A DNA stretch of 37,708 nt, taken from positions 1 through 37,708 of IMG/VR virus record IMGVR_UViG_3300026255_000014; one strand, 5' to 3'. Origin of the DNA: a virus. The position numbers and the translations under genes are program-made. Under the pieces are notes generated by a model. That model made no database searches. It saw nothing but the letters and a program-made list of their open reading frames with translations, and was not told the origin of the DNA. Below are positions 1,070 through 30,185 of the stretch, in pieces (position 1 is the stretch's first letter; every line of letters begins with the position of its first letter).

Positions 1070-1395
1070 ACACGCTTAAACCCTGCCCGTTTTGTGGGAG
1101 GACACCGAATCCAGACTGGACTGATGAGAGCTACATAGAGTGTACAAATCGTAAATGTTCTCTTTATGGTTATGGAATGAGTACAGGCGACTGGAACACC
1201 CGCCCAATTGAGGATGACCTTCGCAAGCGCATTGCCGAGTTGGAGGCGCTTGTTAATGTGTCGGAAGGTCTTTACGAGCGTATCTATGAGCAAGCAGCCC
1301 GCATTGCCGAGCTGGAGGCGGAGATTGTCCAACTTACCGCTGATAGCACAGACGAGCGGAAAGATGATAAATGGATACCGGAGGTGCAGGAATGA
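1066..1395 (+). CDS. Lar-family-like zinc-ribbon protein (putative restriction alleviation), paralog B
   Basis: N-terminus MNTLKPCPFCG...C..RKC is a CxxC/CxxC zinc ribbon resembling Lar family proteins, followed by a coiled coil. Near-identical to 37306..37638 except the last ~12 codons. ATG 1066 overlaps the upstream stop (ATGA). Confidence 0.6.
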   Translation: MNTLKPCPFCGRTPNPDWTDESYIECTNRKCSLYGYGMSTGDWNTRPIEDDLRKRIAELEALVNVSEGLYERIYEQAARIAELEAEIVQLTADSTDERKDDKWIPEVQE

Positions 1396-1670
1396 TACCC
1401 AAAATTTCCAAAATTGTTAGCTGTGTTTGCGGATGTCATTTGGTCAAATTTGAGAAATGGACGGACGATGAAGGTGCGTGGATGATGATCTATGAGAACT
1501 CTTTTTACTCGAAACAGGGTGGAAGAATCAGGTCATATCTGAAACGGCTATGGTCAGCAATTCGAGGAAAAGAATATTTGCTGATGGAAATCAGCATGTC
1601 AGACGAGGATACTGTTGGGCTAAGAAATGCACTAATCGAGGCTACAACACCGCCGGAGGAAATCCAATGA
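1392..1670 (+). CDS. Hypothetical small cysteine-containing protein
   Basis: ORF track 1371..1670 with internal ATG 1392 overlapping the upstream stop; contains CVCGC. Confidence 0.5.
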   Translation: MIPKISKIVSCVCGCHLVKFEKWTDDEGAWMMIYENSFYSKQGGRIRSYLKRLWSAIRGKEYLLMEISMSDEDTVGLRNALIEATTPPEEIQ

Positions 1671-2014
1671 ACCGGACATACGAGGAGTGGGTTGAGAAGG
1701 TGACGGACAGCAGCGCGGACATTGCGCTCGCGGACATGCTGGCGGACTGGCAGGCGGACATCATCCGGCGAATGAAGGCTGAGCACGCGCTGAATAAGCG
1801 CATTGCCGAGCTTGAGGCGGAAATTGACCAACTTACCGCTGATAGCACAGACGAGCGGAAAGATGATAAGTTACCTGAGCGGGAAGTGTGTGAAGCCTGT
1901 GGGGGCGATGGCACATTGCTTTTAGTAGACAACTATAAAGGGCAAGCAACTGCAACTGTGGATTGTCCGTATTGCAACGGCACTGGACGTGTAAACAAGG
2001 AGTGTGAGAAATGA
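1667..2014 (+). CDS. Hypothetical protein with coiled coil and DnaJ-type CxxCxGxG zinc finger
   Basis: Translation contains CEACGGDG and CPYCNGTG; the coiled-coil segment RIAELEAEIDQLTADSTDERKDDK is shared with the Lar paralog at 1066..1395. ATG 1667 overlaps the upstream stop. Confidence 0.55.
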   Translation: MNRTYEEWVEKVTDSSADIALADMLADWQADIIRRMKAEHALNKRIAELEAEIDQLTADSTDERKDDKLPEREVCEACGGDGTLLLVDNYKGQATATVDCPYCNGTGRVNKECEK

Positions 2015-2271
2015 GCGAACAAAAACATCCGGATGATATGACGCGTGAGGAGTTGATAACCCTCGTGTTTGCAATGAGCTGGGCGGCGTTGGATTTAGCA
2101 CAACACTTGGATTTTACAACAAAAATGCTGAAAGAAGAATATCGAAAAGAAGCTTACAAAAAAGCGACACGAATGGCATATGAACTTGTTTTTCTTTGGG
2201 AAGTAGAACCAGATGAGAATAAAAATTCGGGGATACTTATTTTTGGTGAAAATGGATTGGAGCACGGGTGA
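2011..2271 (+). CDS. Hypothetical protein
   Basis: ORF track; ATGA overlap with upstream gene. Confidence 0.5.
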   Translation: MSEQKHPDDMTREELITLVFAMSWAALDLAQHLDFTTKMLKEEYRKEAYKKATRMAYELVFLWEVEPDENKNSGILIFGENGLEHG

Positions 2272-2585
2272 GCAAGTCAGCGCTTGAAGCAGAGTTAGCC
2301 TTGCAGATCAAGGCGTTGGGCTTGCCAGAGCCGATTCGCGAATACCAGGCAATCAAGGGGCGCAAGTTCCGCTTTGACTTCGCTTGGCTTGAGCACAGGT
2401 TGCTGGTGGAAGTGAACGGCGGCACTTACACGAAGGGTGCTCACTCTACAGGTCGGGGCATTGCGCGAGACTACGAGAAGGCGAACCTGGCTACGCTTGA
2501 CGGCTGGCGCGTGCTGATGTTTGACGGCAAGGCGGTGAAGTCGGGTGTAGCGGTTGAAGTGATTAGACAGGCGTTGGAGGCGTGA
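2268..2585 (+). CDS. Putative PD-(D/E)xK-type endonuclease (DUF559/Vsr-like motif pattern)
   Basis: GTG start overlapping the upstream stop; pattern FRFDFAW...LLVEVNGG...H...RD...L...GW.VLMF recalled from DUF559-like nuclease domains. Confidence 0.45.
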   Translation: MSKSALEAELALQIKALGLPEPIREYQAIKGRKFRFDFAWLEHRLLVEVNGGTYTKGAHSTGRGIARDYEKANLATLDGWRVLMFDGKAVKSGVAVEVIRQALEA

Positions 2586-2586
2586 G

Positions 2587-2793
2587 ATGGGATTTTGGGA
2601 AGAGTTGTTTTATGTCATGAAAATAGGCACGGTGGTTACCGTGTGTGGGCTGTTGGCAAGTTTGCCGATAGCGTTTATAGTGCACCTCGCGATTGAAAGA
2701 GGGTCATGGTTGTTAGGTGTTCTGGCGTTCTTTGTACTTATAGCGATTGCGAGTATAGCGGTTGTTATCCAAGAACGGTTGGAGGCTGAATGA
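2587..2793 (+). CDS. Small membrane protein (two predicted TM helices)
   Basis: Hydrophobic segments VVTVCGLLASLPIAFIV and LLGVLAFFVLIAIASIAVV. Confidence 0.5.
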   Translation: MGFWEELFYVMKIGTVVTVCGLLASLPIAFIVHLAIERGSWLLGVLAFFVLIAIASIAVVIQERLEAE

Positions 2794-2993
2794 ACCTGAT
2801 TGATTTCCTAAGCGAAGAGGACGCGGAAAAGCGGATTGAGGTGCAAGAGCGAATTGACGATCTTAGTCGCATAGAGAGAGCGATGCTGCATTTGTGGGTG
2901 GAAGGGTACACCCAGGCAGAGATTGCGCACATGTTTGGTTACTCGCAAGCCAGAATAAGCCAAATACTCAATGCGATTTATAAAAGCTGCTGA
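2790..2993 (+). CDS. Putative HTH transcriptional regulator (sigma-70 region 4-like)
   Basis: C-terminal YTQAEIAHMFGYSQARISQIL resembles a sigma region 4 / LuxR-type helix-turn-helix. Confidence 0.45.
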   Translation: MNLIDFLSEEDAEKRIEVQERIDDLSRIERAMLHLWVEGYTQAEIAHMFGYSQARISQILNAIYKSC

Positions 2994-3021
2994 AAAGTGG
3001 CTGTAGTATATAGAGACCATT

Positions 3022-3225
3022 GTGGAAACTAAACGTTGTGTTTGTGGAAAAGTTATAACGAGCCAATTTGATCTTTGCAACAAGTGTCAAGCAGAATACG
3101 GGCTTGACCGTTCTAAGTGGGATGATTGGCTTATTTTCATGGTTGCCGACTTGAAGCGAGAGCGTCGCCAACAAGCAATCATTGACGAACGCGAAATCCC
3201 GTTTTCAGAATTAGGAATTTATTAA
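3022..3225 (+). CDS. Small zinc-ribbon protein
   Basis: GTG start; CVCG...CNKC motif. Confidence 0.45.
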   Translation: METKRCVCGKVITSQFDLCNKCQAEYGLDRSKWDDWLIFMVADLKRERRQQAIIDEREIPFSELGIY

Positions 3226-3238
3226 CTCGGAGGCTTGA

Positions 3239-3571
3239 ATGGAATTTGACGTAACACTTTTAGGAATCGTAATCGGAATGATGGTACTGGCTAACCGCTT
3301 GGTGGCAATGCTCATTACTCCGCTGTGGGATAAGTACGGCTGGGACAAATTCTGGCTGGCTTATCCGGCCTGGATTCTATCGGGCGTGTTCGTGTGGCTG
3401 ACTGAAGTCAACCTATTCGCCGCGTTTATCCCGAACGCGCTTATCGGTCAAATTCTGACTGCCATTGTTGCAGGGGGCGGGTCAAATTTGCTCCACGACC
3501 TAACTGACAAGCCATCCAATCTGATTGCCGTGTTTGATGCGCTTGAAGATTACGAGGACGCTAACGGATGA
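3239..3571 (+). CDS. Membrane protein, possible holin
   Basis: 110 aa with multiple hydrophobic helices and an acidic C-terminus; holin assignment is an inference from size and topology only. Confidence 0.4.
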   Translation: MEFDVTLLGIVIGMMVLANRLVAMLITPLWDKYGWDKFWLAYPAWILSGVFVWLTEVNLFAAFIPNALIGQILTAIVAGGGSNLLHDLTDKPSNLIAVFDALEDYEDANG

Positions 3572-3996
3572 GCGAGAACGTCTGGGTCGCAATCATAGCA
3601 GCGGTGCTGGGCGGAGGCGGCTTAGGCGCGGCTATTGTGAATGCGCTTGCTAACCGCAAGAAAATCCAGGCGGACTGTGTAGCAACGCTATCATCCGCAT
3701 ACGAAACGAGGATAAACGCTCTCAATAAGCGGGCGGATGAGTTGGCGGCGAAGGTGGACGTCTTAGAGGCGCAAGTCTGTGGCTTGCGTTCTGCATTGTC
3801 AGACAGGGAAGCAATGATTGTGAATTTGCAGCAGGAAAATGTTGATTTGCAGGCGCAAGTGGACAAGTTGAGCAAGGTGGTCAACAACAAGGATAAGCGT
3901 ATTCGGGAATTAGAGCGACAGGTCGCTGACCTGACCACGCGTCTTAATGCGATGAATGGTGGAAGCGGTGAGGCTTGGCTCGGTGGTACTGATTGA
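3568..3996 (+). CDS. Membrane-anchored coiled-coil protein
   Basis: N-terminal TM segment WVAIIAAVLGGGGLGAAIV followed by a long heptad-rich region. Confidence 0.5.
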   Translation: MSENVWVAIIAAVLGGGGLGAAIVNALANRKKIQADCVATLSSAYETRINALNKRADELAAKVDVLEAQVCGLRSALSDREAMIVNLQQENVDLQAQVDKLSKVVNNKDKRIRELERQVADLTTRLNAMNGGSGEAWLGGTD

Positions 3997-4059
3997 CTTC
4001 AAGGGCGGACGTGAGTGCCTGTGGACGTACTCTCGCTTACTTGAAAAGACGAGGATTAT

Positions 4060-4233
4060 TTGGAAACGATCAAATTTGATGCAGTAGTTTATAAATTACA
4101 GACATTGGCTGACGGTGGAATCAGAATCACGCTTGATATGAGCGAGACCTCGATTCCTCAAATGGCAATGTTAGCAGAAACCAAACGACAGGGTTTGGCT
4201 CTTTCGTTTGAAGCGAAGGCGAGCGGCAGTTAG
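4060..4233 (+). CDS. Possible small ORF (57 aa, TTG start)
   Basis: Hand translation of otherwise empty DNA between 3996 and 4237; no motif support. Confidence 0.2.
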   Translation: METIKFDAVVYKLQTLADGGIRITLDMSETSIPQMAMLAETKRQGLALSFEAKASGS

Positions 4234-4236
4234 TTT

Positions 4237-4584
4237 ATGGCTTATGCGCCAGCAAGACAATGTGTTGTGCCAGGATGTCCGAATCTTGTGACAGAGCCTG
4301 GTGTTAGCCGTTGTCCAGAACATCAAAAACAATACAAAAAAGAGTTGACAAGACCGCGTGATGTCAAATACACGAGTCAACGATGGCGCAAGACCTCGAA
4401 GGTGTTTTTGAGTCGCAATCCAATTTGTGAACGTTGTGGTGAGCCGAGTGAGATCGCACACCACATTATTCGTAAGCGTGATGACGGGGCAGACGACTTC
4501 GACAATCTGGAAGCACTTTGCCGAAAGTGTCATGAAGCCGAACATCATGCAAGCGGTGAAAGGTGGGGTAGGCGTGCGAGGTAG
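4237..4584 (+). CDS. HNH homing-type endonuclease
   Basis: CxxC...CxxC plus HH..RKRDDG...N...LC..CH arrangement typical of the HNH fold; canonical position just upstream of the terminase small subunit. Confidence 0.8.
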   Translation: MAYAPARQCVVPGCPNLVTEPGVSRCPEHQKQYKKELTRPRDVKYTSQRWRKTSKVFLSRNPICERCGEPSEIAHHIIRKRDDGADDFDNLEALCRKCHEAEHHASGERWGRRAR

Positions 4585-5071
4585 AACGCCATTGCCAGAT
4601 GCTTTGAAAGAAGCACAGGGAACGCTGAAGAAGAGCCGAGTAAATGACTCTCAGGCTCGTTTTGACGTACCTAAAGACTCACCGAAACCGCCGACAACGC
4701 TCAATCTCTATGGCAAGCGGTTGTGGAAAGAAATGCTGCCAAAGTTGGTTGAAACAGGTCTTTATACCGAAGGTGATCACCAGGCGTTTGAATTGCTTTG
4801 CATGGCTTATGGTGATCTGATTCAGGCACGCAAAGACCTTAAAGAGTCGGGTACGATTGTTATCACAGACAAGGGCACGGTTTATCAGCACCCTAACGTT
4901 GGGATCGCAAACCAGGCTTGGAATCGGGTGAAACTGATGTTGGGGCAGTTTGGGCTGACACCAGCAGAGCGGACACGAGTAAAAGCACGCTCACCCGAAG
5001 AGAAAAGGGGCAGTTTGGCAGAATCGTTGTTTGCTGCTGCACGTGAAAAGGTTGAGGGTGAGACTGAGTGA
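4574..5071 (+). CDS. terS: Terminase small subunit (P27-family-like)
   Basis: Motif GQFGLTPAERTRVKA and N-terminal RGRTPLP resemble P27-family TerS. Start uncertain: GTG 4574 follows an AGGTGGGG SD; ATG 4547 and 4532 are in-frame alternatives. Confidence 0.7.
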   Translation: MRGRTPLPDALKEAQGTLKKSRVNDSQARFDVPKDSPKPPTTLNLYGKRLWKEMLPKLVETGLYTEGDHQAFELLCMAYGDLIQARKDLKESGTIVITDKGTVYQHPNVGIANQAWNRVKLMLGQFGLTPAERTRVKARSPEEKRGSLAESLFAAAREKVEGETE

Positions 5072-6375
5072 GTGCAAATCTGTATTTAGGTGACTGTCTG
5101 GAAGTCTTATCAACGCTTGAAGCGGATAGCATTGACACCTGCATCACTGACCCGCCTTACGAGTTAGGTTTCATGGGTAAGAAGTGGGATTCAAGCGGCA
5201 TTGCGTTCCAGCCTGAAACTTGGCAAGCCGTATTCAGGGTGCTGAAACCAGGTGCAATTCTGCTTGCCTTCGGCGGCACTCGCACCTATCACCGCATTGC
5301 TTGCGCTATTGAGGACGCTGGCTTTGAAATCCGTGACACTATCGCTTGGGTATACGGGAGCGGATTCCCTAAAAGTTACGACATAAGTAAGGGAATTGAC
5401 AAACAAGCTGGAGCTGAAAGGGAAATAGTAGGCTACAAGGAAACATCAACTTATCCAGATAGCGATGGTGTTGCTCATTACAAAAACAGGCAACAAAGCA
5501 ATGGTTCTCAAGTCAATACAGGAGGTATGCCAGAAATCACCGCGCCCTCCACCCCCGAAGCGCAACTCTGGGATGGCTGGGGCACGGCGTTGAAGCCTGC
5601 CTTTGAGCCGATAGTTGTTGCGATGAAGCCGATTGACGGCACGTTTGTCAACAACGCGCTCACTTGGGGCGTGGCTGGCTTGTGGATTGACGGGGGTAGG
5701 GTGGGGACGTCAAAAAACGTTCCTGCATCACCAAGCGATAAAGGCACTCTGCAATGTAAAGGTTTGGGCGGTGGATGGGATAGAAGCGGAATGAATCCGA
5801 ACATTGGTCGCTTCCCTGCCAACTTGATTCACGACGGCTCGGATGAGGTGGTGAGTGGGTTTCCGAATACTACGAGCGGCAAGGTTGCGGCTGGAACTAT
5901 GCGAGGCTTGAAAAGCAATCACAATGTGGCATACGCAGACATCGCCGCCGGAACTGAATTGACTGGCTACGGCGACTCTGGCTCAGCCGCGCGCTTTTTC
6001 TACTGTGCGAAAGCCAGCCGAAGCGAGCGCAACGCTGGGCTGGAGGGGATGGAAGAAAAGGTCGGCGGTGGAATGAAGGGCACGGAAGACCAAACGCTTT
6101 TGACTGGCTCTGGAAACATCCGCAACAATAAAATGCAAAACCACCATCCCACCGTCAAGCCAATCGAACTGATGCGCTACCTTGTTCGGCTTACCAAAAC
6201 GCCAACAGGCGGGGTGGTACTTGACCCGTTCATGGGGTCTGGCACGACTGGCATTGCTTGCGTGTTGGAAGGACGCGAGTTTATCGGAATTGAGCGGGAA
6301 GCGGAGTATGTCGAGATTGCAGAAAAGCGGATTGCGCATTACAGGTTGCCGATATTGGAAGAAGTGATCGAGTGA
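5068..6375 (+). CDS. DNA methyltransferase (N6-adenine/N4-cytosine, beta-class order)
   Basis: N-terminal DPPY (ITDPPYELGF) and C-terminal AdoMet motif LDPFMGSGTTGIA. Confidence 0.85.
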   Translation: MSANLYLGDCLEVLSTLEADSIDTCITDPPYELGFMGKKWDSSGIAFQPETWQAVFRVLKPGAILLAFGGTRTYHRIACAIEDAGFEIRDTIAWVYGSGFPKSYDISKGIDKQAGAEREIVGYKETSTYPDSDGVAHYKNRQQSNGSQVNTGGMPEITAPSTPEAQLWDGWGTALKPAFEPIVVAMKPIDGTFVNNALTWGVAGLWIDGGRVGTSKNVPASPSDKGTLQCKGLGGGWDRSGMNPNIGRFPANLIHDGSDEVVSGFPNTTSGKVAAGTMRGLKSNHNVAYADIAAGTELTGYGDSGSAARFFYCAKASRSERNAGLEGMEEKVGGGMKGTEDQTLLTGSGNIRNNKMQNHHPTVKPIELMRYLVRLTKTPTGGVVLDPFMGSGTTGIACVLEGREFIGIEREAEYVEIAEKRIAHYRLPILEEVIE

Positions 6376-8966
6376 AAAAGTACGATCCCTGGAATTGCGA
6401 CCTTGATAAGTACGAATTTGACCCTGTGGCTGGGCAGGTTGCAGTCGACTTTATTGAAAATTATATTACCCATGTCAAAGGGGAGTTAGGCGGCAAGCCT
6501 TTTTTGCTTTTGGAGTGGGAAAAGGATTTTGTAAGAAACCTTTTCGGTTGGAAAGAAAAGGAAACAGGTTATCGGCGTTACCGTGAGGCGTTTGTATTTG
6601 TGGCACGGAAAAATGGCAAAGCATTAGAAGTCAATACTCCGATTCTGACTACTACAGGTTGGAAGAAACACGGCGATTTAGTCCCTGGAGACTTTGTTTT
6701 TTCTCCTGATGGCGTACCCGCAAAGGTTATCTATTCTACTCCTCATTATGAGGGGAATTGTTATTTTGTGGATTTCTCAGGCGATGAAGCAATTATCGCT
6801 CACGAAAATCACGAATGGAAAACTAACCGCACCTGGTATACAGGAAAGCCCAAATGGATAGAAGGTGAAAAGCCTTTGGTTACCACTAAGCGGATTGCGG
6901 AAACTCTACGATGTGGGAAACGCCAAGACCTTGTGCATTCTGTGGATGTTGCGAAACCGATACAGTTTGAGCCAAAAGAATACACAATACCCCCGTATGT
7001 TTTAGGCGTTTGGCTTGGCGATGGCGACTCTGACAGTTGCAGGATCACGATTGCAGAACCTGAAATTGTCCAGAAGCTATCTGATTATGGTTATCCAGCC
7101 GAATATAGATCAAGATACCGACACCTTGTTGGACGGGGGAAGTTTCAAAAGCAACTGCGTGAAAAGGGCTTACTGGGCAATAAGCATATACCACAAGAAT
7201 ACTTGCTTGGTTCAGTTGAGCAAAGGATCGACCTCTTGCGCGGATTGATGGACACAGACGGTTATGTGTCTTCGGCTGGACAATGCGGAATTGCATTAAC
7301 CGACGGTAATTTGTTTCGCCAAGTTGTCGAATTAATTACAGGCTTGGGATTAAAGCCTCGCGTAATGATTGATCGTGCTCAGTTAAATGGGGTTGACTGC
7401 GGAGTTAGATATAGAGTCCACTTCTATGCCTATCAAGACACGCCAATAGCATATATTGAGCGAAAAGCCAAACGGCAAAAAGAAACTCCAAAAACAAGGC
7501 GGCGCAGCCAGACTCGGATGATTTCAAATGTTACGCCCGCAGGTAAGCAAACAGTCAACTGCATCACAGTCGAAGGCGGGATGTATCTCGCAGGAAAGCA
7601 ACTTATCCCAACTCACAACTCACCTCTTGGGGCTGCCATCGCGCTTTATCTGTTGATTGTAGACAATGAGCCTGGTGCAGAGTTGATCTCTGTAGCAGCA
7701 GACCGAGACCAGGCACGGGCGATTTTTGACACGGCTCGTTTTATGGTAAAGCAAAACGCCGCCCTGGACGAATTGGTTAGTGCATATCGAAATGCGATTG
7801 TCGCTAAGCAAGGGGCTTCAGTTTACAAAGTTGTTTCATCGGATGCTGGCACTAAGCATGGTGGAAACTTACATGCTGCGCTTTTTGACGAGTTGCACGC
7901 TCAGAAGAACCGAGACCTTTACGATGTTGTGCAAACCAGTTTTGGCGCGCGCCGTCAACCACTGCTGATTTCTTTTAGTACGGCAGGGTTTGATCGTGAG
8001 TCGATCTGCTATGAAGTTTACTCAATGGCAAAGCAGATTTCTGAGGGCATAATCCAGCGAGATTGGTTTTACCCCGTAATATACGAGGCATCGCCAGAAG
8101 ACGATTGGACAAGCGAAGATACGTGGAAGAAAGCCAATCCGAGTTTGGGACACTCGATCAAGATTGATTACCTGCAGAAGAATTATGAAAAGGCTCTATC
8201 AAGCCCGCAGTTCCAAAACACTTTCAAGCGTTTGTATCTCAATATGTGGACATCGGCAGAAACACGCTGGCTTGATATGCAAAACTGGGACAAATGCGGT
8301 GAGCAACCGATTGACATGGGACTGCTTGAAGGGGCTGAATGTTACGGCGGTCTTGACCTTGCGACAGTTTCTGACATTGCTGCTTTTGTACTGGATTTCC
8401 CGAATGAAAGCGGTGAAGAGGAATTGCACACCTGGCTTCCGACCTTGTTCTGTCCAGAGTCAAAGTTGACCGACCCAGGTTTCATTGACCGCGACATTTA
8501 CAGGGCTTGGGCTGACCAGGGCTATTTGATTGCAACGCCTGGAAACGTGATTGACTACGAGTACATCATTGCTGAAATTGAGCGATTAGGTGAACTTTAC
8601 AACATTAAAGAGATCGCATTTGACCGTTGGGGTGCTGCACAGATTTCACAAACGCTTACCAATATGGGCTTTACTTTGGTTGGTTTTGGTCAAGGGTACG
8701 TGAGCATGTCACCACCCACAAAAGAAGTTGAGCGGTTGATATTACAAGGCAGGGTGAGACATGGAAACCACCCTGTAATGCGTTGGATGGCGGATAACGT
8801 TATGGTTACGACTGACCCTGCAGGGAATATCAAGCCAGACAAGAAGAAAAGCAGGCAGAAGATTGACGGCGTGGTTGCGGCAATCATGGCAACCGATAGG
8901 GCAATTAGAAATTCTGTAGGTCGCAAGGACTCTGTTTACGAAAAAAGAGGGTTGGTTGTTCTATGA
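6372..8966 (+). CDS. terL: Terminase large subunit, interrupted by an in-frame intein
   Basis: 864 aa; removing residues 84..416 yields the P-loop ARKNGKS and a Walker B-like LLIVDNE with a C-terminal nuclease-like domain. GTG start overlaps the upstream stop. Confidence 0.9.
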   Translation: MKKYDPWNCDLDKYEFDPVAGQVAVDFIENYITHVKGELGGKPFLLLEWEKDFVRNLFGWKEKETGYRRYREAFVFVARKNGKALEVNTPILTTTGWKKHGDLVPGDFVFSPDGVPAKVIYSTPHYEGNCYFVDFSGDEAIIAHENHEWKTNRTWYTGKPKWIEGEKPLVTTKRIAETLRCGKRQDLVHSVDVAKPIQFEPKEYTIPPYVLGVWLGDGDSDSCRITIAEPEIVQKLSDYGYPAEYRSRYRHLVGRGKFQKQLREKGLLGNKHIPQEYLLGSVEQRIDLLRGLMDTDGYVSSAGQCGIALTDGNLFRQVVELITGLGLKPRVMIDRAQLNGVDCGVRYRVHFYAYQDTPIAYIERKAKRQKETPKTRRRSQTRMISNVTPAGKQTVNCITVEGGMYLAGKQLIPTHNSPLGAAIALYLLIVDNEPGAELISVAADRDQARAIFDTARFMVKQNAALDELVSAYRNAIVAKQGASVYKVVSSDAGTKHGGNLHAALFDELHAQKNRDLYDVVQTSFGARRQPLLISFSTAGFDRESICYEVYSMAKQISEGIIQRDWFYPVIYEASPEDDWTSEDTWKKANPSLGHSIKIDYLQKNYEKALSSPQFQNTFKRLYLNMWTSAETRWLDMQNWDKCGEQPIDMGLLEGAECYGGLDLATVSDIAAFVLDFPNESGEEELHTWLPTLFCPESKLTDPGFIDRDIYRAWADQGYLIATPGNVIDYEYIIAEIERLGELYNIKEIAFDRWGAAQISQTLTNMGFTLVGFGQGYVSMSPPTKEVERLILQGRVRHGNHPVMRWMADNVMVTTDPAGNIKPDKKKSRQKIDGVVAAIMATDRAIRNSVGRKDSVYEKRGLVVL
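6621..7619 (+). mobile_element. Intein (333 aa) with LAGLIDADG homing endonuclease domain inside the TerL Walker A motif
   Basis: Begins ALEVNTPILT, contains LGVWLGDGDS and LLRGLMDTDGYV, ends ...LIPTHN followed by Ser; splicing restores ARKNGK|SPLG. Confidence 0.8.
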
Positions 8967-9172
8967 GTTTATTTGGATGGTTTGCAGAATTGAGACCAGT
9001 TATTGTCAACACAAAGTTTGGCAAGGATTTCAGGGGCGTTGTTTGGAAGAAAACAAACGACTGCATCGTTCTGAAAAACGCAGAGTGGTTGTCGCCTGAT
9101 GGGGCGAAAAAACTGGATGGTGAAACAATCATCTTCATCAAAGAAATCGAATTTATACAGGCGGTCTCATGA
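8963..9172 (+). CDS. Hypothetical protein
   Basis: ORF track; ATGA overlaps with both TerL and portal. Confidence 0.5.
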   Translation: MSLFGWFAELRPVIVNTKFGKDFRGVVWKKTNDCIVLKNAEWLSPDGAKKLDGETIIFIKEIEFIQAVS

Positions 9173-11115
9173 CAACGATTATTTCAGAAACTAACCTAAT
9201 AACGATGCCAGCGAATTGGTGGACAAACGCAAACAACATCACGCTTTCATCGGTGCGATCCGATTACAACTTCGATTATTTGGCGATGTACAGGAATCAC
9301 ATGAACGTGAGGATTTGCGTTGATTTCCTGGCTCGAAATATCGCTCACCTGGGGCTGCACGTTTACACGCGAAAAGAAGACAATGACAGAGAGCGATTGC
9401 GAGACCACAGGGCGGTACAAATTCTGAAACAACCGCTGCCGGCAAAGTTTAAGGTGACACAGTTCCAACTGGTTGAATCGGCAGTCGCAGACATGCTGAT
9501 CAGCGGTAATGGTTATTTACTCAAACACAGAAACGGTGAGGGTGAGATCATCGCGCTTCAGCGTGTGCCTTATATGCTTATGAGTGTCAAGGGCGAGTTA
9601 GTTCCTACGAAATACAAAATTGGCTATATCGAGAAAGAGTACAAGCCAGAAGATATTATCCATTTTCGATTTTACAACCCTGAGAACTCTACCATCGGCG
9701 TTTCACCGCTTGAAGGTTTGCGCGAAGTGTTGGCTGAAGAATGGGAAAAGTCGAAGTACAGTTCTGGTTTCTGGCGGAATGCCGCTCGTATTTCTGGTGT
9801 GATCGAAAGACCGCTGGAAGCAAAAGAAATGAGCGAAGCAGCAGCACGCAACTTCCGTCAGCAATGGCAGGAAATGTATGCAGGTGAAGACAACAGCGGC
9901 AAGACTGCTTTGTTGGAAGAGGGCATGGTTTTCAAACCGATGTCGTTCAGCCCGAAAGAAACTGAGTATATCGAGAGCAGAAAACTAAACCGAGAAGAAT
10001 GCGCGAGAGCATATCACATCCCCCCGCCAATGGTCGGAATTTTAGATCGCAGTACGTTCTCGAACATTACCGAGTTGCACAAGTCGCTTTACATGGATGT
10101 GCTTAGTCCAATGTGTGCCAGACTTGAGGACGATTGGGATTTGCAGTATTTGAGTGAGTTCAAAGATTTGAAGGGCGCATACACTGAGTTCAATATTGAC
10201 GAAAAACTACAGTCTGATTTCAGTATGCAACTTGAGTCACTACGGCAGTCTGTGGGCGTGCCTTACATGACACCGAACGAAGGTCGTGCGATTCTGAACC
10301 TTCCACGTTTGAAGAACCCCCTGGCTGACACCCTGGTTACCCCTCTCAATATGGCAACCCCTGAAATGGTTATGCGACAACAACAGAACAAAAGTGAAAT
10401 GCCAATAATTGAGACTAAGGCATCGGCTGAGTCTATCATGCCAGAATATCCCGACCTGGACAAAGACTTTGGTGAGAAATGGCACAAGTTGATGGTGAAC
10501 GTTTTTACACGCCAGAGAGACGCAGTGTTACCAAAAGCGAAGATGGACAAGTTGGATGTGCTTTGGGACAAAGAGCGTTGGGACAGGGAAGTCGCTGAGG
10601 ACTTTCTGAAACTTGCGGAAGAAACCGCCTGGGCTTATGCGGATGCTTTTGCAGGGCAGTTAGGCGCAGAGTACAAGCGCGAGTGGATGGAAAAATGGTT
10701 GCAGGAAAACTCCAGGATTGCCGCTGAATATATCAACGCCAGCACCTACGACCAGCTCGCAAAGGCGATGCAGGGTGAAAATCCAGTTGACGCAATCAAA
10801 GAGGTGTTTGCGTCAGCATTGGCGGTAAGAGCGGTGCAATTGGCTGAGGATCGCCGCGCGATGGTGGAAAGTTATGTTGAAGCAAAGATTGCAGATGCGG
10901 TTGATTCCGTTATCGGGAAGATTTGGACAGTTAGAAGCAACAACCCCCGCCCAGAACACGAGAAGATGAATGGCGAGTTTATTGAGAAAAGGGAAGTGTT
11001 TTCAAACGGACTACAGTACCCACGAAGTTACAAGGGTAGTGCTAAAGACAATGCCAACTGTAAATGTAAGGTGATGTGGGTCAGAAAACCTGTAGACACC
11101 ACGCCTTTGAGGTGA
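9169..11115 (+). CDS. Portal protein with C-terminal MuF-like (minor head protein) domain
   Basis: Central region resembles HK97-family portals; C-terminus carries RPEHEKMNGEF, a MuF-like motif. Confidence 0.75.
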   Translation: MTTIISETNLITMPANWWTNANNITLSSVRSDYNFDYLAMYRNHMNVRICVDFLARNIAHLGLHVYTRKEDNDRERLRDHRAVQILKQPLPAKFKVTQFQLVESAVADMLISGNGYLLKHRNGEGEIIALQRVPYMLMSVKGELVPTKYKIGYIEKEYKPEDIIHFRFYNPENSTIGVSPLEGLREVLAEEWEKSKYSSGFWRNAARISGVIERPLEAKEMSEAAARNFRQQWQEMYAGEDNSGKTALLEEGMVFKPMSFSPKETEYIESRKLNREECARAYHIPPPMVGILDRSTFSNITELHKSLYMDVLSPMCARLEDDWDLQYLSEFKDLKGAYTEFNIDEKLQSDFSMQLESLRQSVGVPYMTPNEGRAILNLPRLKNPLADTLVTPLNMATPEMVMRQQQNKSEMPIIETKASAESIMPEYPDLDKDFGEKWHKLMVNVFTRQRDAVLPKAKMDKLDVLWDKERWDREVAEDFLKLAEETAWAYADAFAGQLGAEYKREWMEKWLQENSRIAAEYINASTYDQLAKAMQGENPVDAIKEVFASALAVRAVQLAEDRRAMVESYVEAKIADAVDSVIGKIWTVRSNNPRPEHEKMNGEFIEKREVFSNGLQYPRSYKGSAKDNANCKCKVMWVRKPVDTTPLR

Positions 11116-11126
11116 AAGGAATAATT

Positions 11127-11735
11127 ATGAAAATGGAAAAGAAATCATTTGAAACCGAACTTGAGTTCAAAGAAAACGCCGATGAGACTGGTCAATTCAA
11201 GGCAGTGTTCAGTTGGTTTGATGTAATTGACAAACACGGTGATGTTACCTTGCCAGGGGCGTTTGAGGAAGGGGCGAAAGTCAAGATTGCTTCCTGGGGG
11301 CATCGGTGGGAAAACCTGCCTGTTGGTCGCGGTGAAGTCCACCAGGATGAAGAGAAAGCCTGGGTGGACGGTAAGTTTTTCCTTGATACTGAAGCGGGTC
11401 TTGAAACCTACAAGACCGTCAAAAATCTTGGTGAGTTACAAGAGTGGTCGTATGGATTCGAGACCATTGACTCATCCGAGGATAAGAAAGACGGACGGAC
11501 AGTGCGAGTGTTGAAGAAACTCAAAACTTTCGAGGTGTCGCCTGTATTTATTGGTGCAGGGAACGACACTCAAACTTTAGCCATTAAGAGCGAGGGCGAA
11601 GAGTCTGAGCCAGAAGTGGAGCAGGAAGTCAAAACTGAATCAGAGACCGTGGAAGTCGGGAATGAGAGCGGCGTTGATCCTGCTGACATGAAATTACTAA
11701 TCGAAATAATTGCTTTGGAGGCAAAACATGAATAA
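11127..11735 (+). CDS. Prohead protease (HK97 family)
   Basis: Pattern DVIDKHGDVTLPGAF...SWGH...SYGF...FEVSPV. Start ATG 11127 chosen inside ORF 11076..11735. Confidence 0.75.
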   Translation: MKMEKKSFETELEFKENADETGQFKAVFSWFDVIDKHGDVTLPGAFEEGAKVKIASWGHRWENLPVGRGEVHQDEEKAWVDGKFFLDTEAGLETYKTVKNLGELQEWSYGFETIDSSEDKKDGRTVRVLKKLKTFEVSPVFIGAGNDTQTLAIKSEGEESEPEVEQEVKTESETVEVGNESGVDPADMKLLIEIIALEAKHE

Positions 11736-13020
11736 CGAAAAATTTATGAATCTTTTGGGCGATGCCCGTGAGATTGTTGAAAAGGCTCTTGTTGAGGGTC
11801 GCCCTATGACAGAGGACGAGCGCAATAAGTCCATGAACATGGTAGAAGAAGCCAAACAAGGTCTTGATGACGTTGCTTTGGAACGCAAGATCGCTGAACT
11901 TCAGGCTGCTGCCGCAAAGGGCAAAGAAGAAGAAACCCAAGAGGAAGTAAAAGGCAGTATGGGTGAACGCTTTGCTCAGAGCAAGGCATACAAAGCCTGG
12001 ATGAAACAGGTTGCTCCCAACGGTCACATTCCTGAGAGTGCGAAGGGCATCAATTCCCCCGCTTTCCAGGTCGACATGCCGTTTGAAAAGAAAGCCGTTC
12101 TTACTGGCGCATCTGCCACTTCTGGCGGCGCGTTCATTCAGAACGACGACACTGGCATTTACGTTCCTATGGGACGCAAACCGCTGAAGTTGCGCGACCT
12201 GATCAGCGTCCGTAGTACCAATAGCGACATGGTTGAGTTTGTTCGCCAGACTGCACAGGTTACCCAGGCGGCTGGCGTTGCTGAAGCGACTTCTGCTGCC
12301 GCCCCTACAGTTGTCACAACTGCGACTGGTAATCCAACGCTGGTCTATACCAGCACTGTGACTAACAACGCAGGTGGCGGTTACAAACCCGAAGGCGCAA
12401 TGGCTTTTGAAAAAGTTACCGCTCCCGTGGAAACCGTTGCAGTATGGATTCCTGTAACCAAACGCGCTCTGGCTGACGCAGCTCAATTGCGCGGAATTAT
12501 TGACCAGGAATTGCGCGACTCTCTCATGGATGAGATCGAAACCAACATCCTGTTTGGGCAAGCCACTCCCGATTTTGTCGGTTTGGCTGAAACGCCGAAT
12601 ATTTTGAGCCAGGCTTTTAGCACCAACATTCTGACTACTGCCCGTAAAGCCATCACTAATTTGGCGACAAACGGTTTGGAAGCCAGCCCCACCGCATTCG
12701 TGGTTGCACCTGCCGATTGGGAAGCGGTTGAGTTAGCTCTCTTTGCTGCCGCACCGTACCTGCCTTATCAGCAATCCATGTGGCGTATTCCTGTGGTTGA
12801 GTCACAGTATCTCACCGCTGGTACTGCCTATTTGGGCAACTGGAAACAGGCGGTTATGTGGGATCGCCAGCAGGTCACTATCAGCGTAAGCGATAGCCAT
12901 GCTGATTTCTTCATCCGCAACCTGGTTGCAGTGCTTGCTGAGGCTCGTGCAGCTTTCGGTGTGCTGAAACCAAAGTCCTTTGTTGAGATCGCTACCGCCG
13001 CAAGCGGCAGCCCATCTTAG
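11728..13020 (+). CDS. Major capsid protein (HK97 fold) with N-terminal delta/scaffold-like coiled coil
   Basis: ATG 11728 preceded by GGAGG; ~100-aa charged coiled-coil N-terminus followed by a capsid-like body; followed by a strong terminator. Confidence 0.85.
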   Translation: MNNEKFMNLLGDAREIVEKALVEGRPMTEDERNKSMNMVEEAKQGLDDVALERKIAELQAAAAKGKEEETQEEVKGSMGERFAQSKAYKAWMKQVAPNGHIPESAKGINSPAFQVDMPFEKKAVLTGASATSGGAFIQNDDTGIYVPMGRKPLKLRDLISVRSTNSDMVEFVRQTAQVTQAAGVAEATSAAAPTVVTTATGNPTLVYTSTVTNNAGGGYKPEGAMAFEKVTAPVETVAVWIPVTKRALADAAQLRGIIDQELRDSLMDEIETNILFGQATPDFVGLAETPNILSQAFSTNILTTARKAITNLATNGLEASPTAFVVAPADWEAVELALFAAAPYLPYQQSMWRIPVVESQYLTAGTAYLGNWKQAVMWDRQQVTISVSDSHADFFIRNLVAVLAEARAAFGVLKPKSFVEIATAASGSPS

Positions 13021-24057: not shown

Positions 24058-25470
24058 ATGACTTATCCGTTCGGCATTGACATTTCGGCTTACCAATACT
24101 CACAAGACGGCTCACGAAAGCCCGACTTCGACCTAATCAACGAAAAGTGTGACTTCGTTGCCGTGCGTGCTGGCATCAGTTGGGGGTACACCGACAAGTG
24201 GTTTGAGTATTCGTGGTCACACGTTCTCAGACCGAGGCTGGGGTATCACGTGGTTTACCCTGGCGAGAGTGCGACTGCACAAATGAAACACTTTCTCAAC
24301 ATCGTGCATCCAACTCAGAATGACCGCCTTGTGCTTGATATGGAACTCGACCACGGCTATAGCAAGGCTCGAATCACAAAAACGCTTGTGGACTGTATGA
24401 ACATTATACAGACAGAGACGGGGCGTTATCCTGTGATTTACAGCAGGGCTTATTGGATTAACCAGTTTGTAGACGTGAACGCTTTGCCAGAAAAGACCGA
24501 CTGGTGGTTAGCAAACTACCTGCGTTCTAATCCCGACCCGTATTTCACGCCAGAGATGACACCGCCGCCTATGTTGCCAAACGGTGTGAAGAATTGGCTC
24601 ATCCATCAAACGTCAAAAGAACAGGACGGCAGTAAGGTGGGCGTGGTTAGTCACTATGTGGACACTAATCGTTGGAACGGTACACACGATGAGTTGCTGG
24701 CTTACTTCGGTTACGATGAGCAACCAGAGCCTGAACCTGAACCTGAACCGGAAGAGCCTTTGTTCCAAGCACGCGTTTACAGCTGGGCGACTCCCTACGT
24801 CAACGTGAGAGCCGAACCTTCATTAAGCGCAGGGAAAGTCGGCTTCAAATACCCGTTAGCGGTGACCGATGTTATGAGCACGATGCCTGACTGGTACGAA
24901 GTGCCCGAAGGCTGGATGATGTCTCGATTCTTAGAACGGCTTGACTATGACCCGCCCGCCACGATGCTTGCAATCAAGCCGCTCTCACAAAGAGACACGC
25001 GCTGGGCTTCTCACAAACTCGGTTATTCCTATTACACGATAGGCGGTTACGGATGCCTTATCACAGCTATCAGTATGATACTGAACTGGTACGGCAAGCA
25101 GACCGACCCGGCGCAACTCAATGACGCTTTGGTTAGGGTGGGCGGTTTCACGGGTGCAAACCTTTATTGGAACGCAATCGCGCAAGTTCAGCCTGACATT
25201 TACCTTGCAAAGGCTATCGACTGCTACTATATTCCAGCACCCTTGCACGAAATAGACGCTCTGCTTGCGGATGACGTTCCCGTCTTGGTGCACGTTGACT
25301 TCACGCCGGGTGGCGCGGTAGATCAGCATTGGGTGCTGATTGTCGGCAAGTCGGGCGATGATTACATCATCAATGACCCGTGGACTGGGGAGCAAGGTAG
25401 TTTCCGCACTCGTTATGGCGATCCTGCCCGCTGGATATTCCGCATCAGGGCGTATCGGAGGCAAGCATGA
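24058..25470 (+). CDS. Modular endolysin: GH25 muramidase, (EP)n linker, C-terminal C39-like cysteine peptidase
   Basis: N-terminal FGIDISAYQ typical of GH25; linker EPEPEPEPEPEEP; C-terminal GYGCLITAISM and DQHWVLIVG suggest a papain-like Cys/His pair. Confidence 0.8.
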   Translation: MTYPFGIDISAYQYSQDGSRKPDFDLINEKCDFVAVRAGISWGYTDKWFEYSWSHVLRPRLGYHVVYPGESATAQMKHFLNIVHPTQNDRLVLDMELDHGYSKARITKTLVDCMNIIQTETGRYPVIYSRAYWINQFVDVNALPEKTDWWLANYLRSNPDPYFTPEMTPPPMLPNGVKNWLIHQTSKEQDGSKVGVVSHYVDTNRWNGTHDELLAYFGYDEQPEPEPEPEPEEPLFQARVYSWATPYVNVRAEPSLSAGKVGFKYPLAVTDVMSTMPDWYEVPEGWMMSRFLERLDYDPPATMLAIKPLSQRDTRWASHKLGYSYYTIGGYGCLITAISMILNWYGKQTDPAQLNDALVRVGGFTGANLYWNAIAQVQPDIYLAKAIDCYYIPAPLHEIDALLADDVPVLVHVDFTPGGAVDQHWVLIVGKSGDDYIINDPWTGEQGSFRTRYGDPARWIFRIRAYRRQA

Positions 25471-28426: not shown

Positions 28427-28698
28427 CATTACAAAATCCATTGAAAGACCCTTCCGCAGTGCTGGATTATGTGTTCGACTGGACGGAATGGCTGGCAACC
28501 GGCGAAACAATCACCGACCATACTATCACAGCCGACACGGGTATCACCGTTGACAGTTCGACTGAATCAGACGGCAAAGTTACCGTCTGGCTCTCAGGCG
28601 GTACGGCTGGTATCAATTACAAAGTGGCGTGCCTGATTACAACGTCCGCAGGGCGAACCGACGAGCGCACAATCTGGATCAAGGTGGTCGAAAGGTGA
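28417..28698 (+). CDS. Small conserved-looking phage protein (possible fiber-associated)
   Basis: Pattern DYVFDWTEWL...VTVWLSGGTAG.NYKV recalled as a recurrent phage family; function unknown. Confidence 0.35.
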   Translation: MSLTLQNPLKDPSAVLDYVFDWTEWLATGETITDHTITADTGITVDSSTESDGKVTVWLSGGTAGINYKVACLITTSAGRTDERTIWIKVVER

Positions 28699-30185
28699 GC
28701 AATTTGTTTCCAGACATAACGGGCGTGCTATATGAAGAAGAACAGTCAAAATTACATGAGATAGCCAAAACAACTACGCATCCAATTGTCAACATTGGCG
28801 TATATCAAGGATTGTCTACCGCACAACTTGCAAGTGGCACAAAGCAGAGCGTGTACGCCATTGACATTTGGGATGAGCGACCAGCAGGGTATGTCCCAAG
28901 TAAAAGGGACTTGATGAGGGGATACCACCTGAAGAAAACTCAGGACGTTTTCCTTGAAAACATGGAAAAGCACGGCTTGACAAACGTTATCCCGATAAAG
29001 GGTAACAGCAAGGTGGTTGGCAAAACCTGGGACACCCCGATAGGCGTGTTGTTTATCGACGGTGATCACCATTACAAATCCGCGCTTTCGGATTACAGCT
29101 TGTTTGCAAAACACATTGTAGTCGGCGGATGGTTAGCAATTCACGATTATCACATAAAAGACGTTAGAAGGGTGATAGACGAGATCATCATTCCTTCGGG
29201 ACTGTGGACGGACATTGAACTGACAGAGACCTTATGGGTTTGCAAGAGAAAGTCGTGCACGACAGCAGACGCAAAACCGCCTATGACATACTGGATACGC
29301 CATCATCAGCACAAAGGGAAGCCAATTGAAGACGCTTTAATTAGTCAAGGATGGCAGTGTAGTGACGCGCCAGATATTGCCTTGTTCGACACCGCGAGGA
29401 ACAAACCTATAGAACGCAGGTTTAGAAGAGGGGGCGCAACGCTTGTAGTCTATCCGCATACGGCAATTGCTGGCTGGTGGTACGACGGGATATTAGAACC
29501 GCCTAACGGCTTTAGTGCAATACTGGCTATCGGGGAAGGACAGAAGGAAGTCCAGAATATCATCACGCCGAACATCAGGGTTGAAACAATTGGTTGGAGT
29601 TATTGTCCAATCTTGCCATTTCAAAAGCCAAAGGCGATCAAGCAAATACTGTTTGCCCCCATCCATCCAAGCCTCAATGGCAAGTTGAGATCAGAGGCAA
29701 AAGACGTGAACGTCAGGGTGTATAAGCGTTTGCTGGAAATGAAAGGCGTGCAGATAAACCTTCGTGTTATTGGCGATCTTGAAAAGAATGGATTATGGCA
29801 CTCGCCAGATGTTACAACCACAGAAGCCCAACCAGACGGAAGTTATGCAGAAATTGATTCTGCAGATTTGGTGATAGGCGAGGGCATGTTTCTATCGCTT
29901 GCAGTAGCCAGAGGGAAGCCAGCTATCGGAATGAATCAGCGCGTAACACAGAAAGTAAACTGGAGTGGGCGCGTTCCAAAACGGTGGAACGAATATAACC
30001 ACTTACAAGCATATCCGATTGACTTTGATGACGCTGATCTGCCGGAGTTGATTGACAAGGCGGTAGACGAATCACAGGTAAGCAACTGGAAGAAACGCTT
30101 TATCGGTGAGCAGTTGCAACCTGAGCATTTATCAAACGTGCTAAAGGACATCAGGAATGAGCATGCCAAACAGAGAGAACAATAA
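28695..30185 (+). CDS. Fusion protein: class I SAM-dependent methyltransferase-like N-terminus, glycosyltransferase-like C-terminal domain
   Basis: NIGVYQGLST...FIDGDHHY...GGWLAIHDY resembles Methyltransf_24-type O-methyltransferases; C-terminal ADLVIGEGMFLSLAVARGKPAIG resembles GT-B C-terminal domains. GTG start overlaps upstream stop. Confidence 0.5.
   Translation: MSNLFPDITGVLYEEEQSKLHEIAKTTTHPIVNIGVYQGLSTAQLASGTKQSVYAIDIWDERPAGYVPSKRDLMRGYHLKKTQDVFLENMEKHGLTNVIPIKGNSKVVGKTWDTPIGVLFIDGDHHYKSALSDYSLFAKHIVVGGWLAIHDYHIKDVRRVIDEIIIPSGLWTDIELTETLWVCKRKSCTTADAKPPMTYWIRHHQHKGKPIEDALISQGWQCSDAPDIALFDTARNKPIERRFRRGGATLVVYPHTAIAGWWYDGILEPPNGFSAILAIGEGQKEVQNIITPNIRVETIGWSYCPILPFQKPKAIKQILFAPIHPSLNGKLRSEAKDVNVRVYKRLLEMKGVQINLRVIGDLEKNGLWHSPDVTTTEAQPDGSYAEIDSADLVIGEGMFLSLAVARGKPAIGMNQRVTQKVNWSGRVPKRWNEYNHLQAYPIDFDDADLPELIDKAVDESQVSNWKKRFIGEQLQPEHLSNVLKDIRNEHAKQREQ

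Follow-up and report, generated by a model that had tools for sequence, protein, structure and literature searches.

The portal gene of an uncultured phage, known from metagenomic DNA of ~47% G+C, continues far beyond its portal core. Its product is very probably an HK97-family portal protein joined through a flexible linker to a domain of the MuF/SPP1-gp7 type. The window, by which we mean the whole stretch of DNA analysed, is 37,708 nucleotides long, and the complete fusion gene lies at 9169..11115 on the + strand as one uninterrupted open reading frame (ORF) of 648 aa plus stop, as seen in the ORF list, in the match to phrog_2662 and in identical copies elsewhere. An earlier note, made from the DNA letters, had proposed a portal fused to a MuF-like minor head domain. 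This proposal is borne out by the matches to PF04860 and TIGR01537 on the one hand and, on the other, by phrog_2468, by a profile alignment (hhalign) to SPP1 gp7 and by Foldseek.

The gene is part of a head module with the order TerL, 69-aa ORF, portal-MuF, S78 protease and capsid. The large terminase subunit (6372..8966, + strand) was recognised by TerL_ATPase and TerL_nuclease matches and is interrupted by an intein with Hom_end/LAGLIDADG matches; the insertion was mapped by comparison with the intein-less TerL of the relative L004. The small ORF of 69 aa between TerL and the portal (8963..9172, + strand) was read from the sequence, and its slot holds an ORF of 69-74 aa in the relatives L004, L005, L009 and L012. 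Downstream, the prohead serine protease (S78; 11127..11735, + strand; PF04586, E=2.9e-16) starts 11 nt past the portal-MuF stop, with AAGGA upstream of its ATG at 11127, and is annotated as 202 aa on sibling contigs. The HK97-fold major capsid protein follows (11728..13020, + strand; PF05065, E=1.1e-28; 430 aa on sibling contigs). At the nucleotide level, sequenced phages gave only short matches of ~65-68%, all inside the terminase gene. A contig of a 'Candidatus Neomarinimicrobiota' MAG carries the nearest named relative, a weak clue to the host.

Portal module, linker and possible cleavage

Judged by its sequence, the N-terminal part of the protein is an HK97-family portal. The portal domain (aa 47-377; 9307..10299, + strand) scores 274.2 bits with Pfam PF04860 (Phage_portal) against a cutoff of 39.1 (E=1.9e-81), and NCBIfam TIGR01537 gives 182.8 bits against a cutoff of 112.05. 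Two solved portals are matched over aa 47-384, namely 6tba, the RcGTA portal (E=8.5e-21), and 8cez, an HK97-type portal (E=7.3e-17), and the alignments to both of these HK97-type structures stop at aa 379-384. With the Pfam portal ending at aa 377 and the solved-portal alignments at aa 379-384, the ORF thus extends ~260 codons beyond the portal core, more than the approximately 200 codons given in the earlier note.

After the portal comes a conserved V-T-P-L-N junction, and then a poorly conserved, flexible linker of ~30 residues (aa 390-418; 10336..10422, + strand). Both the length and the sequence of this linker differ among homologues. The full-length model assigns it a pLDDT below 50, the model of the C-terminal part one of 55-61. 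The full-length monomer model accordingly consists of two predicted folded modules joined by the linker.

The C-terminal (crown) end of a portal protein points into the capsid interior. The prototype among the MuF proteins studied is gp7 of phage SPP1, a portal-associated protein that is present in one to a few copies, is targeted to the capsid interior and is encoded right after the portal (PMC5576092, PMC6316719). Portal binding, location in the capsid interior and support of infection initiation are known only for SPP1 gp7 (PMC5576092, PMC6316719). We propose that in the phage studied here a covalent link would substitute for the SPP1-style interaction between portal and gp7. One MuF domain per portal subunit, up to 12 copies in all, would then come to lie inside the procapsid at the portal vertex. 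The tethered MuF might then do a gp7-like job, holding or organising the DNA end and helping the genome to exit. The two systems differ in that SPP1 gp7 is a separate protein of 308 aa that binds the portal tightly but non-covalently, whereas the covalent attachment found here implies up to 12 copies. Since 12 tethered copies stand against one to a few gp7 molecules in SPP1, the functional analogy may not transfer.

It is also possible, though we consider it the less likely course of events, that the fusion is only a delivery device and that the S78 prohead protease cuts the linker after procapsid assembly. The products would be a portal of normal size and a free MuF protein in the head, which could exit together with the DNA in the manner suggested for gp7 and the MuF toxins. 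The disordered and variable character of aa 390-418 would suit such a cut, as would a prohead protease gene only 11 nt downstream. Moreover, delivery into the host has been proposed for standalone MuF proteins (PMC5576092, PMC6316719), and fusions of MuF to a protease occur in other phages (PMC7302621). On the other side, the linker showed no conserved cleavage motif. In any case, such processing would refine rather than contradict the explanation preferred here, that of a portal linked to a MuF domain.

The MuF/gp7-like C-terminal domain

Several lines of evidence support homology between the C-terminal part of the protein (aa ~420-645; 10426..11103, + strand) and minor head (head morphogenesis) proteins of the MuF/SPP1-gp7 type. 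The profile phrog_2468 'head morphogenesis' matches the C-terminus with E=4e-11. When the family profile A1 was aligned with hhalign to SPP1 gp7, the match extended across an R-x-x-H...C-x-C motif (probability 92.2%, E=5.9e-7); with Mu gpF the aligned region includes this motif too, and the match is weak (E=0.0046, probability 7.6%). The AlphaFold (AF2) model of the C-terminal part has a pLDDT of 91.2 and a pTM of 0.83, and it predicts a long bundle of helices with a small beta subdomain after it. Using Foldseek, we obtained 97 matches in BFVD at E<=1e-3; most of the matched proteins carry the names head morphogenesis domain, minor capsid or MuF-like minor capsid. For example, 'MuF-like minor capsid protein [Microbacterium phage FuzzBuster]' is amongst them. 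Their TMq values of 0.5-0.74 compare predicted structures on both sides. No experimental MuF structure was found in the PDB, where a profile search with A1 and a Foldseek search gave only insignificant matches to helical bundles.

A domain search had been suggested in the earlier note as a check. The direct match to Pfam PF04233 (Phage_Mu_F) at aa 552-636 stays below the gathering score of 29.6 bits: the full protein reaches 19.2 bits and the isolated C-terminus 21.3 bits, and none of the 39 relatives tested attains this cutoff (best 27.6 bits). The supporting results come from phrog_2468, from the gp7 alignment and from the family as a whole, of which 29 of 39 members match PF04233 at E<=0.01 while no competing family recurs. 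By the Pfam cutoff the protein is therefore not a formal member of PF04233 (MuF1), and we place it in the wider MuF superfamily as a divergent member; position and HMM-HMM homology define that superfamily (Jamet et al. 2017, PMC5576092). The sole NCBIfam match on the C-terminus, to Cas8a1/Csx13, is sub-threshold and spurious.

The conserved residues of the domain cluster around two short motifs. The string RPEHEKMNGEF, with which the protein had been said to end, is indeed present at aa 594-604 (10948..10980, + strand), but a further 44 residues follow it. Its residues R594, H597 and G602 are invariant in the family alignments A1 and A2. The same holds for K584, W586, F611, P618, C631 and C633, the last two forming C631-K-C633 (11059..11067, + strand), the C-x-C that ends the MuF domain. 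N613 is also among the invariant residues of the 44-residue stretch after RPEHEKMNGEF. The resulting motif, K-x-W...R-x-x-H-x4-G...C-x-C, is common to the family, SPP1 gp7 and Mu gpF: RPEHEKMNGEF aligns to 'TRAGHRKLDGK' in SPP1 gp7 and to 'TRPEHARLHN' in Mu gpF, and C631-K-C633 aligns to 'NCRC' in both. It is in this motif region that our domain and SPP1 gp7 are homologous, whereas elsewhere their likeness is at the fold level only. Mu gpF (gp30), the founding member of PF04233, shares the motif in the form W...R-P-E-H...N-C-R/K-C, and its gene lies directly downstream of the Mu portal gene. Mu F nonetheless differs in having 439 aa with the motif in the N-terminal half, and the Mu portal comes from another family.

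Could the C-terminus be something other than MuF, such as a lineage-specific set of helices that extends the portal crown or barrel, as in P22-like portals, and resembles MuF by chance? The sub-threshold score with PF04233 would be in keeping with this, and so would a domain composed mostly of long helices, which are prone to spurious matches and which found only generic helical bundles in the PDB. We nevertheless regard it as very improbable. The domain exists as whole standalone proteins of 200-300 aa in the muf slot, the Foldseek matches span the full length of named MuF and head morphogenesis proteins, and the hhalign match to gp7 sits on the non-helical motif region. In addition, one relative (P0264) has a CdiA_C toxin domain after MuF, like the MuF polymorphic toxins.

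These polymorphic toxins (PMC5576092) have the MuF targeting domain and the portal-proximal context in common with our protein; their toxin partner is C-terminal, whereas here the partner is a portal, stands N-terminal and comes without a toxin domain. The thought that the C-terminus might serve to bring a toxin domain or an effector domain into the host draws on relatives with C-terminal extensions, namely the CdiA_C domain of P0264 and the extra tails of ~260 aa in P0150 and P0236, and on the top BFVD match, which is a Zeta-toxin-domain protein. The chance of this is slight. There are 15 residues between the closing C-x-C of the MuF domain and the end of the protein, the prohead protease gene comes next, and searches of Pfam, PHROGs and NCBIfam detected no toxin or immunity domain. 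We reject the toxin reading because MuF is not succeeded by any domain.

Integrity of the fused reading frame

The observation of a long portal ORF with a C-terminal extension is confirmed. At its 5′ end, the TGA stop of the 69-aa ORF and the ATG start of the 648-aa ORF overlap in the sequence ATGA, and an alignment shows that homologues conserve residues 6-46 of the 648-aa protein. Both the stop/start overlap and this conservation favour the start of the 648-aa form, and an alternative gene call of 604 aa on the same contig (P0013) is probably too short. HMMs built from the clade match in one frame, the portal model at aa 1-389 and the MuF model at aa 421-640, and a six-frame hmmsearch revealed no second MuF-like ORF in the window. 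We also searched for signs that short and long products are made from the gene. In the linker and its surroundings there is neither a slippery heptamer with an out-of-frame stop nor an internal start with a Shine-Dalgarno sequence, and the sole slippery-like site in frame, CCCCCCG at aa 284, falls within the portal core.

The fused form recurs widely. Separate samples in ENA, JGI and Logan yielded 21 contigs that encode exactly this 648-aa protein, and the layout is shared by over 100 full-length homologues, which measure 630-700 aa and are 41-99% identical. An error of sequencing or assembly, through loss of a stop or a shift of frame, could, as a single event, merge adjacent portal and muf genes and so mimic a fusion, since MuF genes normally adjoin portal genes on the downstream side (PMC5576092), but this is in practice refuted and has next to no probability left, given identical copies from independent samples, homologues retaining the single ORF down to 41% identity, a nearly invariant V-T-P-L-N junction and an entire family, phrog_2662, with the portal-MuF layout.

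Fused and separate MuF domains among relatives

The family profile phrog_2662 'portal protein' spans aa 18-636 of the query at profile positions 37-706 of 717 (E=3.2e-132). At a query coverage of 80% or more there are 271 phage records, many of which bear the label 'portal and MuF-like fusion protein'. By tblastn, the fusions of Arthrobacter phages are 35-37% identical over 95-100% of the query (E~1e-105), examples being MargaretKali (MH450123), Maja (MK279899) and HunterDalle (KU160648). Portal-MuF fusions have also been described in the Microbacterium phage clusters EA3, EA5, EA8 and EB (Jacobs-Sera 2020, PMC7302621). As phrog_2662, the GenBank label and the latter study attest, the portal-MuF architecture is already known, and the gene described here is an ordinary new example of it. 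The actinobacteriophage fusions resemble it in having the portal and then MuF in one ORF, between the terminase and the protease/capsid genes; they differ in being only 35-37% identical to a query whose source is no actinophage. Furthermore, Microbacterium phages of cluster EA are without a prohead protease (PMC7302621), whereas in our window the protease follows the fusion gene.

MuF is not always fused: the top 150 cluster representatives comprise 89 fused and 61 MuF-only proteins. The comparison with separately encoding relatives that the earlier note had recommended could be made with L004 (from GCA_043801535.1) and L012 (from ERZ4198739), and it agrees with the fusion. Both have the same order as this phage, that is TerL, small ORF, portal, ..., MuF, protease and capsid, and differ in that MuF is a standalone gene of 247-292 aa (P0134, P0143) between the portal and the protease/capsid. 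Against the clade-built HMMs, the portal of L004 scores 627 bits and its MuF 261 bits. In place of MuF, the portal C-terminus carries a SAM-dependent methyltransferase domain in L004 and an unrelated extension of ~270 aa in L012. The extended portal gene of L012 adjoins a gene for an HD-type hydrolase.

In a neighbour-joining tree built from 137 MuF domains, fused forms are interspersed with separate ones. The tree requires 30 Fitch changes (shuffled labels need 40 on average and 30 at the least), but at ~30% identity it is too weak for counting fusion or fission events, and some of its 'standalone' entries may be gene fragments (P0125, for example, lies on a 1-kb contig).

More speculatively, and with considerable doubt, the portal C-terminus of this clade might be an exchangeable docking site for cargo, which would place twelve copies of an internal protein in each capsid. 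If this were true, the cargo would be MuF in the phage studied here, the methyltransferase in L004, which has MuF as its own gene, and the ~270-aa domain in L012. The intermixing of fused and separate forms on the tree would then mean that cargo is swapped frequently. Should the prohead protease free the tethered domains, and should they be ejected along with the DNA, they would be portal-borne injected effectors.

The finding has little general consequence. It does touch on annotation, as automatic annotation gives this protein and hundreds of its metagenomic relatives the name 'HK97 family phage portal protein' and no Pfam domain other than PF04860. The score of the MuF part falls below the Pfam cutoff, so that this part is overlooked, and a dedicated profile for this MuF subfamily would mend the gap. 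Given that the PDB searches returned no solved structure, twelve covalently tethered copies could also suit cryo-EM of the MuF domain. Finally, the fusion is natural genetic evidence for MuF/gp7-type proteins acting at the inner face of the portal.

The portal–MuF reading frame

An uninterrupted reading frame on the + strand (9169..11115, 648 aa) joins a portal to a MuF-like domain. Sequence comparison identifies its N-terminal half as a portal of the HK97 family: aa 47-377 match Pfam PF04860 (E=1.9e-81), the NCBIfam TIGR01537 score is 183 bits (cutoff 112), and the solved RcGTA (6tba) and HK97-type (8cez) portals are matched as well. The earlier note had described a portal gene continuing for about 200 codons past the core and ending with RPEHEKMNGEF. 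We confirm this observation, with two details imprecise: the extension is present but amounts to ~260 residues (aa 377 is the last residue of the Pfam domain, and alignments to solved portals reach aa 379-384), and the string lies at aa 594-604, with 44 more residues after it.

The ATG overlaps the TGA of an upstream 69-aa ORF (tcATGa at 9169-9172). The stop TGA occupies 11113-11115, and the prohead protease ATG, preceded by AAGGA, follows 11 nt later. The public gene call on the window's own 37,708-bp contig (P0013) is 604 aa, from Met45 (window 9301 versus 9169), and the gene is called at 648 aa on sibling contigs. We favour the 648-aa start because of the ATGA overlap and the conservation of residues 6-46 in homologues. 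An assembly artefact was ruled out: the identical 648-aa protein is found on 21 contigs from different ENA/JGI/Logan samples, with neighbours likewise the same, and more than 100 homologues (630-700 aa, 41-99% identity) have the same layout. Neither recoding nor an internal start that would yield a mix of short and long products was evident in the fusion gene.

Identity of the C-terminal half

Against Pfam Phage_Mu_F, the whole protein scores 19.2 bits and the isolated C-terminus 21.3 bits, both below the cutoff of 29.6. Because this match is weak by itself, we sought independent evidence. Compared alone with PHROGs, the C-terminus matches phrog_2468 ('head morphogenesis', 4e-11). The whole protein matches phrog_2662 ('portal protein', 717 positions) end to end (3e-132), and the fused layout is therefore itself a catalogued family. 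Searching 1.84 billion cluster representatives with aa 390-648 (phmmer) yielded 598 proteins at E<=1e-3; when the top 150 were sorted by HMMs built from the window clade, one per half, 89 were portal+MuF and 61 MuF-only (about 200-320 aa).

Alignment A1 combines 19 C-termini of fused proteins with 20 standalone proteins. Ten positions are invariant (full-length numbering: N523, K584, W586, R594, H597, G602, F611, P618, C631, C633). PF04233 is matched at E<=0.01 by 29 of the 39 members, and no second family recurs. With hhalign, A1 aligns to residues 194-276 of SPP1 gp7 (92% probability, E=5.9e-7), pairing the motifs KxW, R-x-x-H-x4-G and N-C-R-C; Mu gpF can be aligned at this motif too, but only weakly (E=0.0046).

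AlphaFold2 on A1 gave a confident model (pLDDT 91.2, pTM 0.83), with a predicted long bundle of helices and, after it, a small beta subdomain bearing the motif; the ~30 residues at its start are floppy. In the full-length model, two folded modules are separated by a linker (aa 390-418) with pLDDT <50. Foldseek against BFVD returned 97 matches at E<=1e-3 (TMq up to 0.74), overwhelmingly named 'phage head morphogenesis domain', 'minor capsid protein', 'head morphogenesis protein' or 'MuF-like minor capsid protein'. These matches often span the whole target length; a few long 'portal' proteins are also among the 97. While the direct Pfam match is sub-threshold, the PHROGs, gp7, PF04233 and Foldseek results together support the earlier reading of the gene as portal plus MuF.

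Relatives and neighbouring genes

A single ORF covers at least 80% of the window protein in 271 sequenced phage genomes, most of them from phages of Arthrobacter, Microbacterium and Curtobacterium. Many of these ORFs carry the label 'portal and MuF-like fusion protein', which genome announcements also use, and the fusion was documented by Jacobs-Sera et al. (PMC7302621). Such a fusion is thus catalogued already and ordinary in phage head modules. The window protein is only 35-37% identical to the actinophage fusions, and its phage is uncultured (~47% G+C). Accordingly, we regard it as a divergent addition to a known kind of fusion, not a new kind. Among named relatives the nearest, at 98% identity, is a short contig assigned to a 'Candidatus Neomarinimicrobiota' MAG, and a 54% relative (L009) is a prophage within a 660-kb bacterial contig.

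The proposed comparison with relatives that encode the two proteins separately found standalone MuF genes at two loci. L004 (NCBI GCA_043801535.1) reads TerS, TerL, 74-aa ORF, portal, 85-aa ORF, MuF-like P0134 (247 aa), S78 protease, capsid; its portal (627 bits) and MuF (261 bits) are both close to the window's halves. L012 reads TerL, small ORF, 662-aa portal, 71-aa ORF, HD_4 protein, MuF-like P0143 (292 aa), protease-like protein, capsid. As muf genes lie immediately downstream of portal genes (Jamet et al. 2017, PMC5576092), these gene orders place the fused domain exactly in the known muf slot. The window holds no second MuF-like ORF.

Both loci have further peculiarities. In the L004 portal (613 aa; 2344-4185, contig JAZDLZ010000802.1), a class I SAM-dependent methyltransferase domain (aa ~440-552) replaces MuF, which is its own gene two ORFs downstream; a portal-tethered, capsid-internal methyltransferase would be unusual. 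In L012 (ENA ERZ4198739 NODE_1349, 1209-3980), the portal ends in a non-MuF extension of ~270 aa, with only a weak TGS-domain match, and the HD_4 gene between the 71-aa ORF and the standalone MuF is small alarmone hydrolase-like. These could be a portal-borne effector and its antidote.

When 137 MuF domains were placed on a neighbour-joining tree, fused and separate states were strongly intermixed, with 30 changes (label shuffles: mean 40, minimum 30). Repeated fusion and fission would fit this pattern, and so equally would low resolution among domains ~30% identical, together with contaminating gene fragments, such as possibly P0125, on a 1-kb contig.

Within the same MuF subfamily, P0150 is portal + MuF + an unassigned ~260-aa tail, P0236 is MuF + a ~270-aa tail, and P0219 has a ~290-aa insertion separating portal from MuF. 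P0264 joins MuF to a CdiA_C toxin domain. The window protein, in contrast, lacks such a tail and ends 15 residues past the C-x-C, so a MuF toxin reading was rejected. In two portal-MuF homologues, P0037 (1054 aa) and P0068 (1041 aa), an intein (PF14528/PF14890) interrupts the portal domain itself, a ~390-aa insertion splitting the portal HMM match at about aa 298.

The window's TerL (6372-8966, +, 864 aa) is also enlarged by an intein (6621-7619, +; 333 aa at TerL aa 84-416) with a LAGLIDADG/Hom_end homing-endonuclease domain. It sits directly after the Walker A lysine (RKNGK/ALEVN...IPTHN/S, slashes marking its borders). Its first residue is Ala instead of Cys or Ser, and its last two are His-Asn, with Ser after them. 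The L004 TerL (559 aa) has no intein; that of L009, given its length (871 aa), probably does. Between the small terminase (4427-5071) and TerL lies an N6/N4 DNA methyltransferase (PF01555; 5068-6375, +, 435 aa), in which the 221 positions of the Pfam profile are distributed across aa 22-420, implying a large insertion in the enzyme. Elsewhere are a probable two-domain endolysin (24058-25470, +; N-terminal GH25 muramidase, C-terminal C39-like papain-fold peptidase domain), a Methyltransf_24-domain protein downstream of the tail genes (28629-30185, +, 518 aa) and a 154-aa protein (1550-2014, +) with a sub-threshold DnaJ-type CXXCXGXG zinc-finger match.

Possible role of a tethered MuF domain

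The C-terminal crown of portal proteins (SPP1, HK97, P22) faces the capsid interior. We infer that each portal subunit would carry one MuF domain into the head, on a ~30-residue linker beneath the crown. In SPP1, strong binding of gp7 to the portal gp6 brings a few gp7 copies inside the procapsid; gp7 is dispensable for assembly, and only about 25% of gp7-less virions are infectious (PMC6316719, PMC5576092). MuF proteins are thought to carry toxin domains into the capsid by this portal-binding route (PMC6316719, PMC5576092). By analogy, the covalent link would stand in for the non-covalent portal-gp7 contact, and the tethered domain may have a gp7-like role at the DNA end, in packaging or exit.

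The practical value of the finding is limited to two points: Pfam-based standard annotation misses the MuF half of a large metagenomic clade, and MuF domains tethered to the portal could offer a good way to obtain the first MuF structure by experiment.
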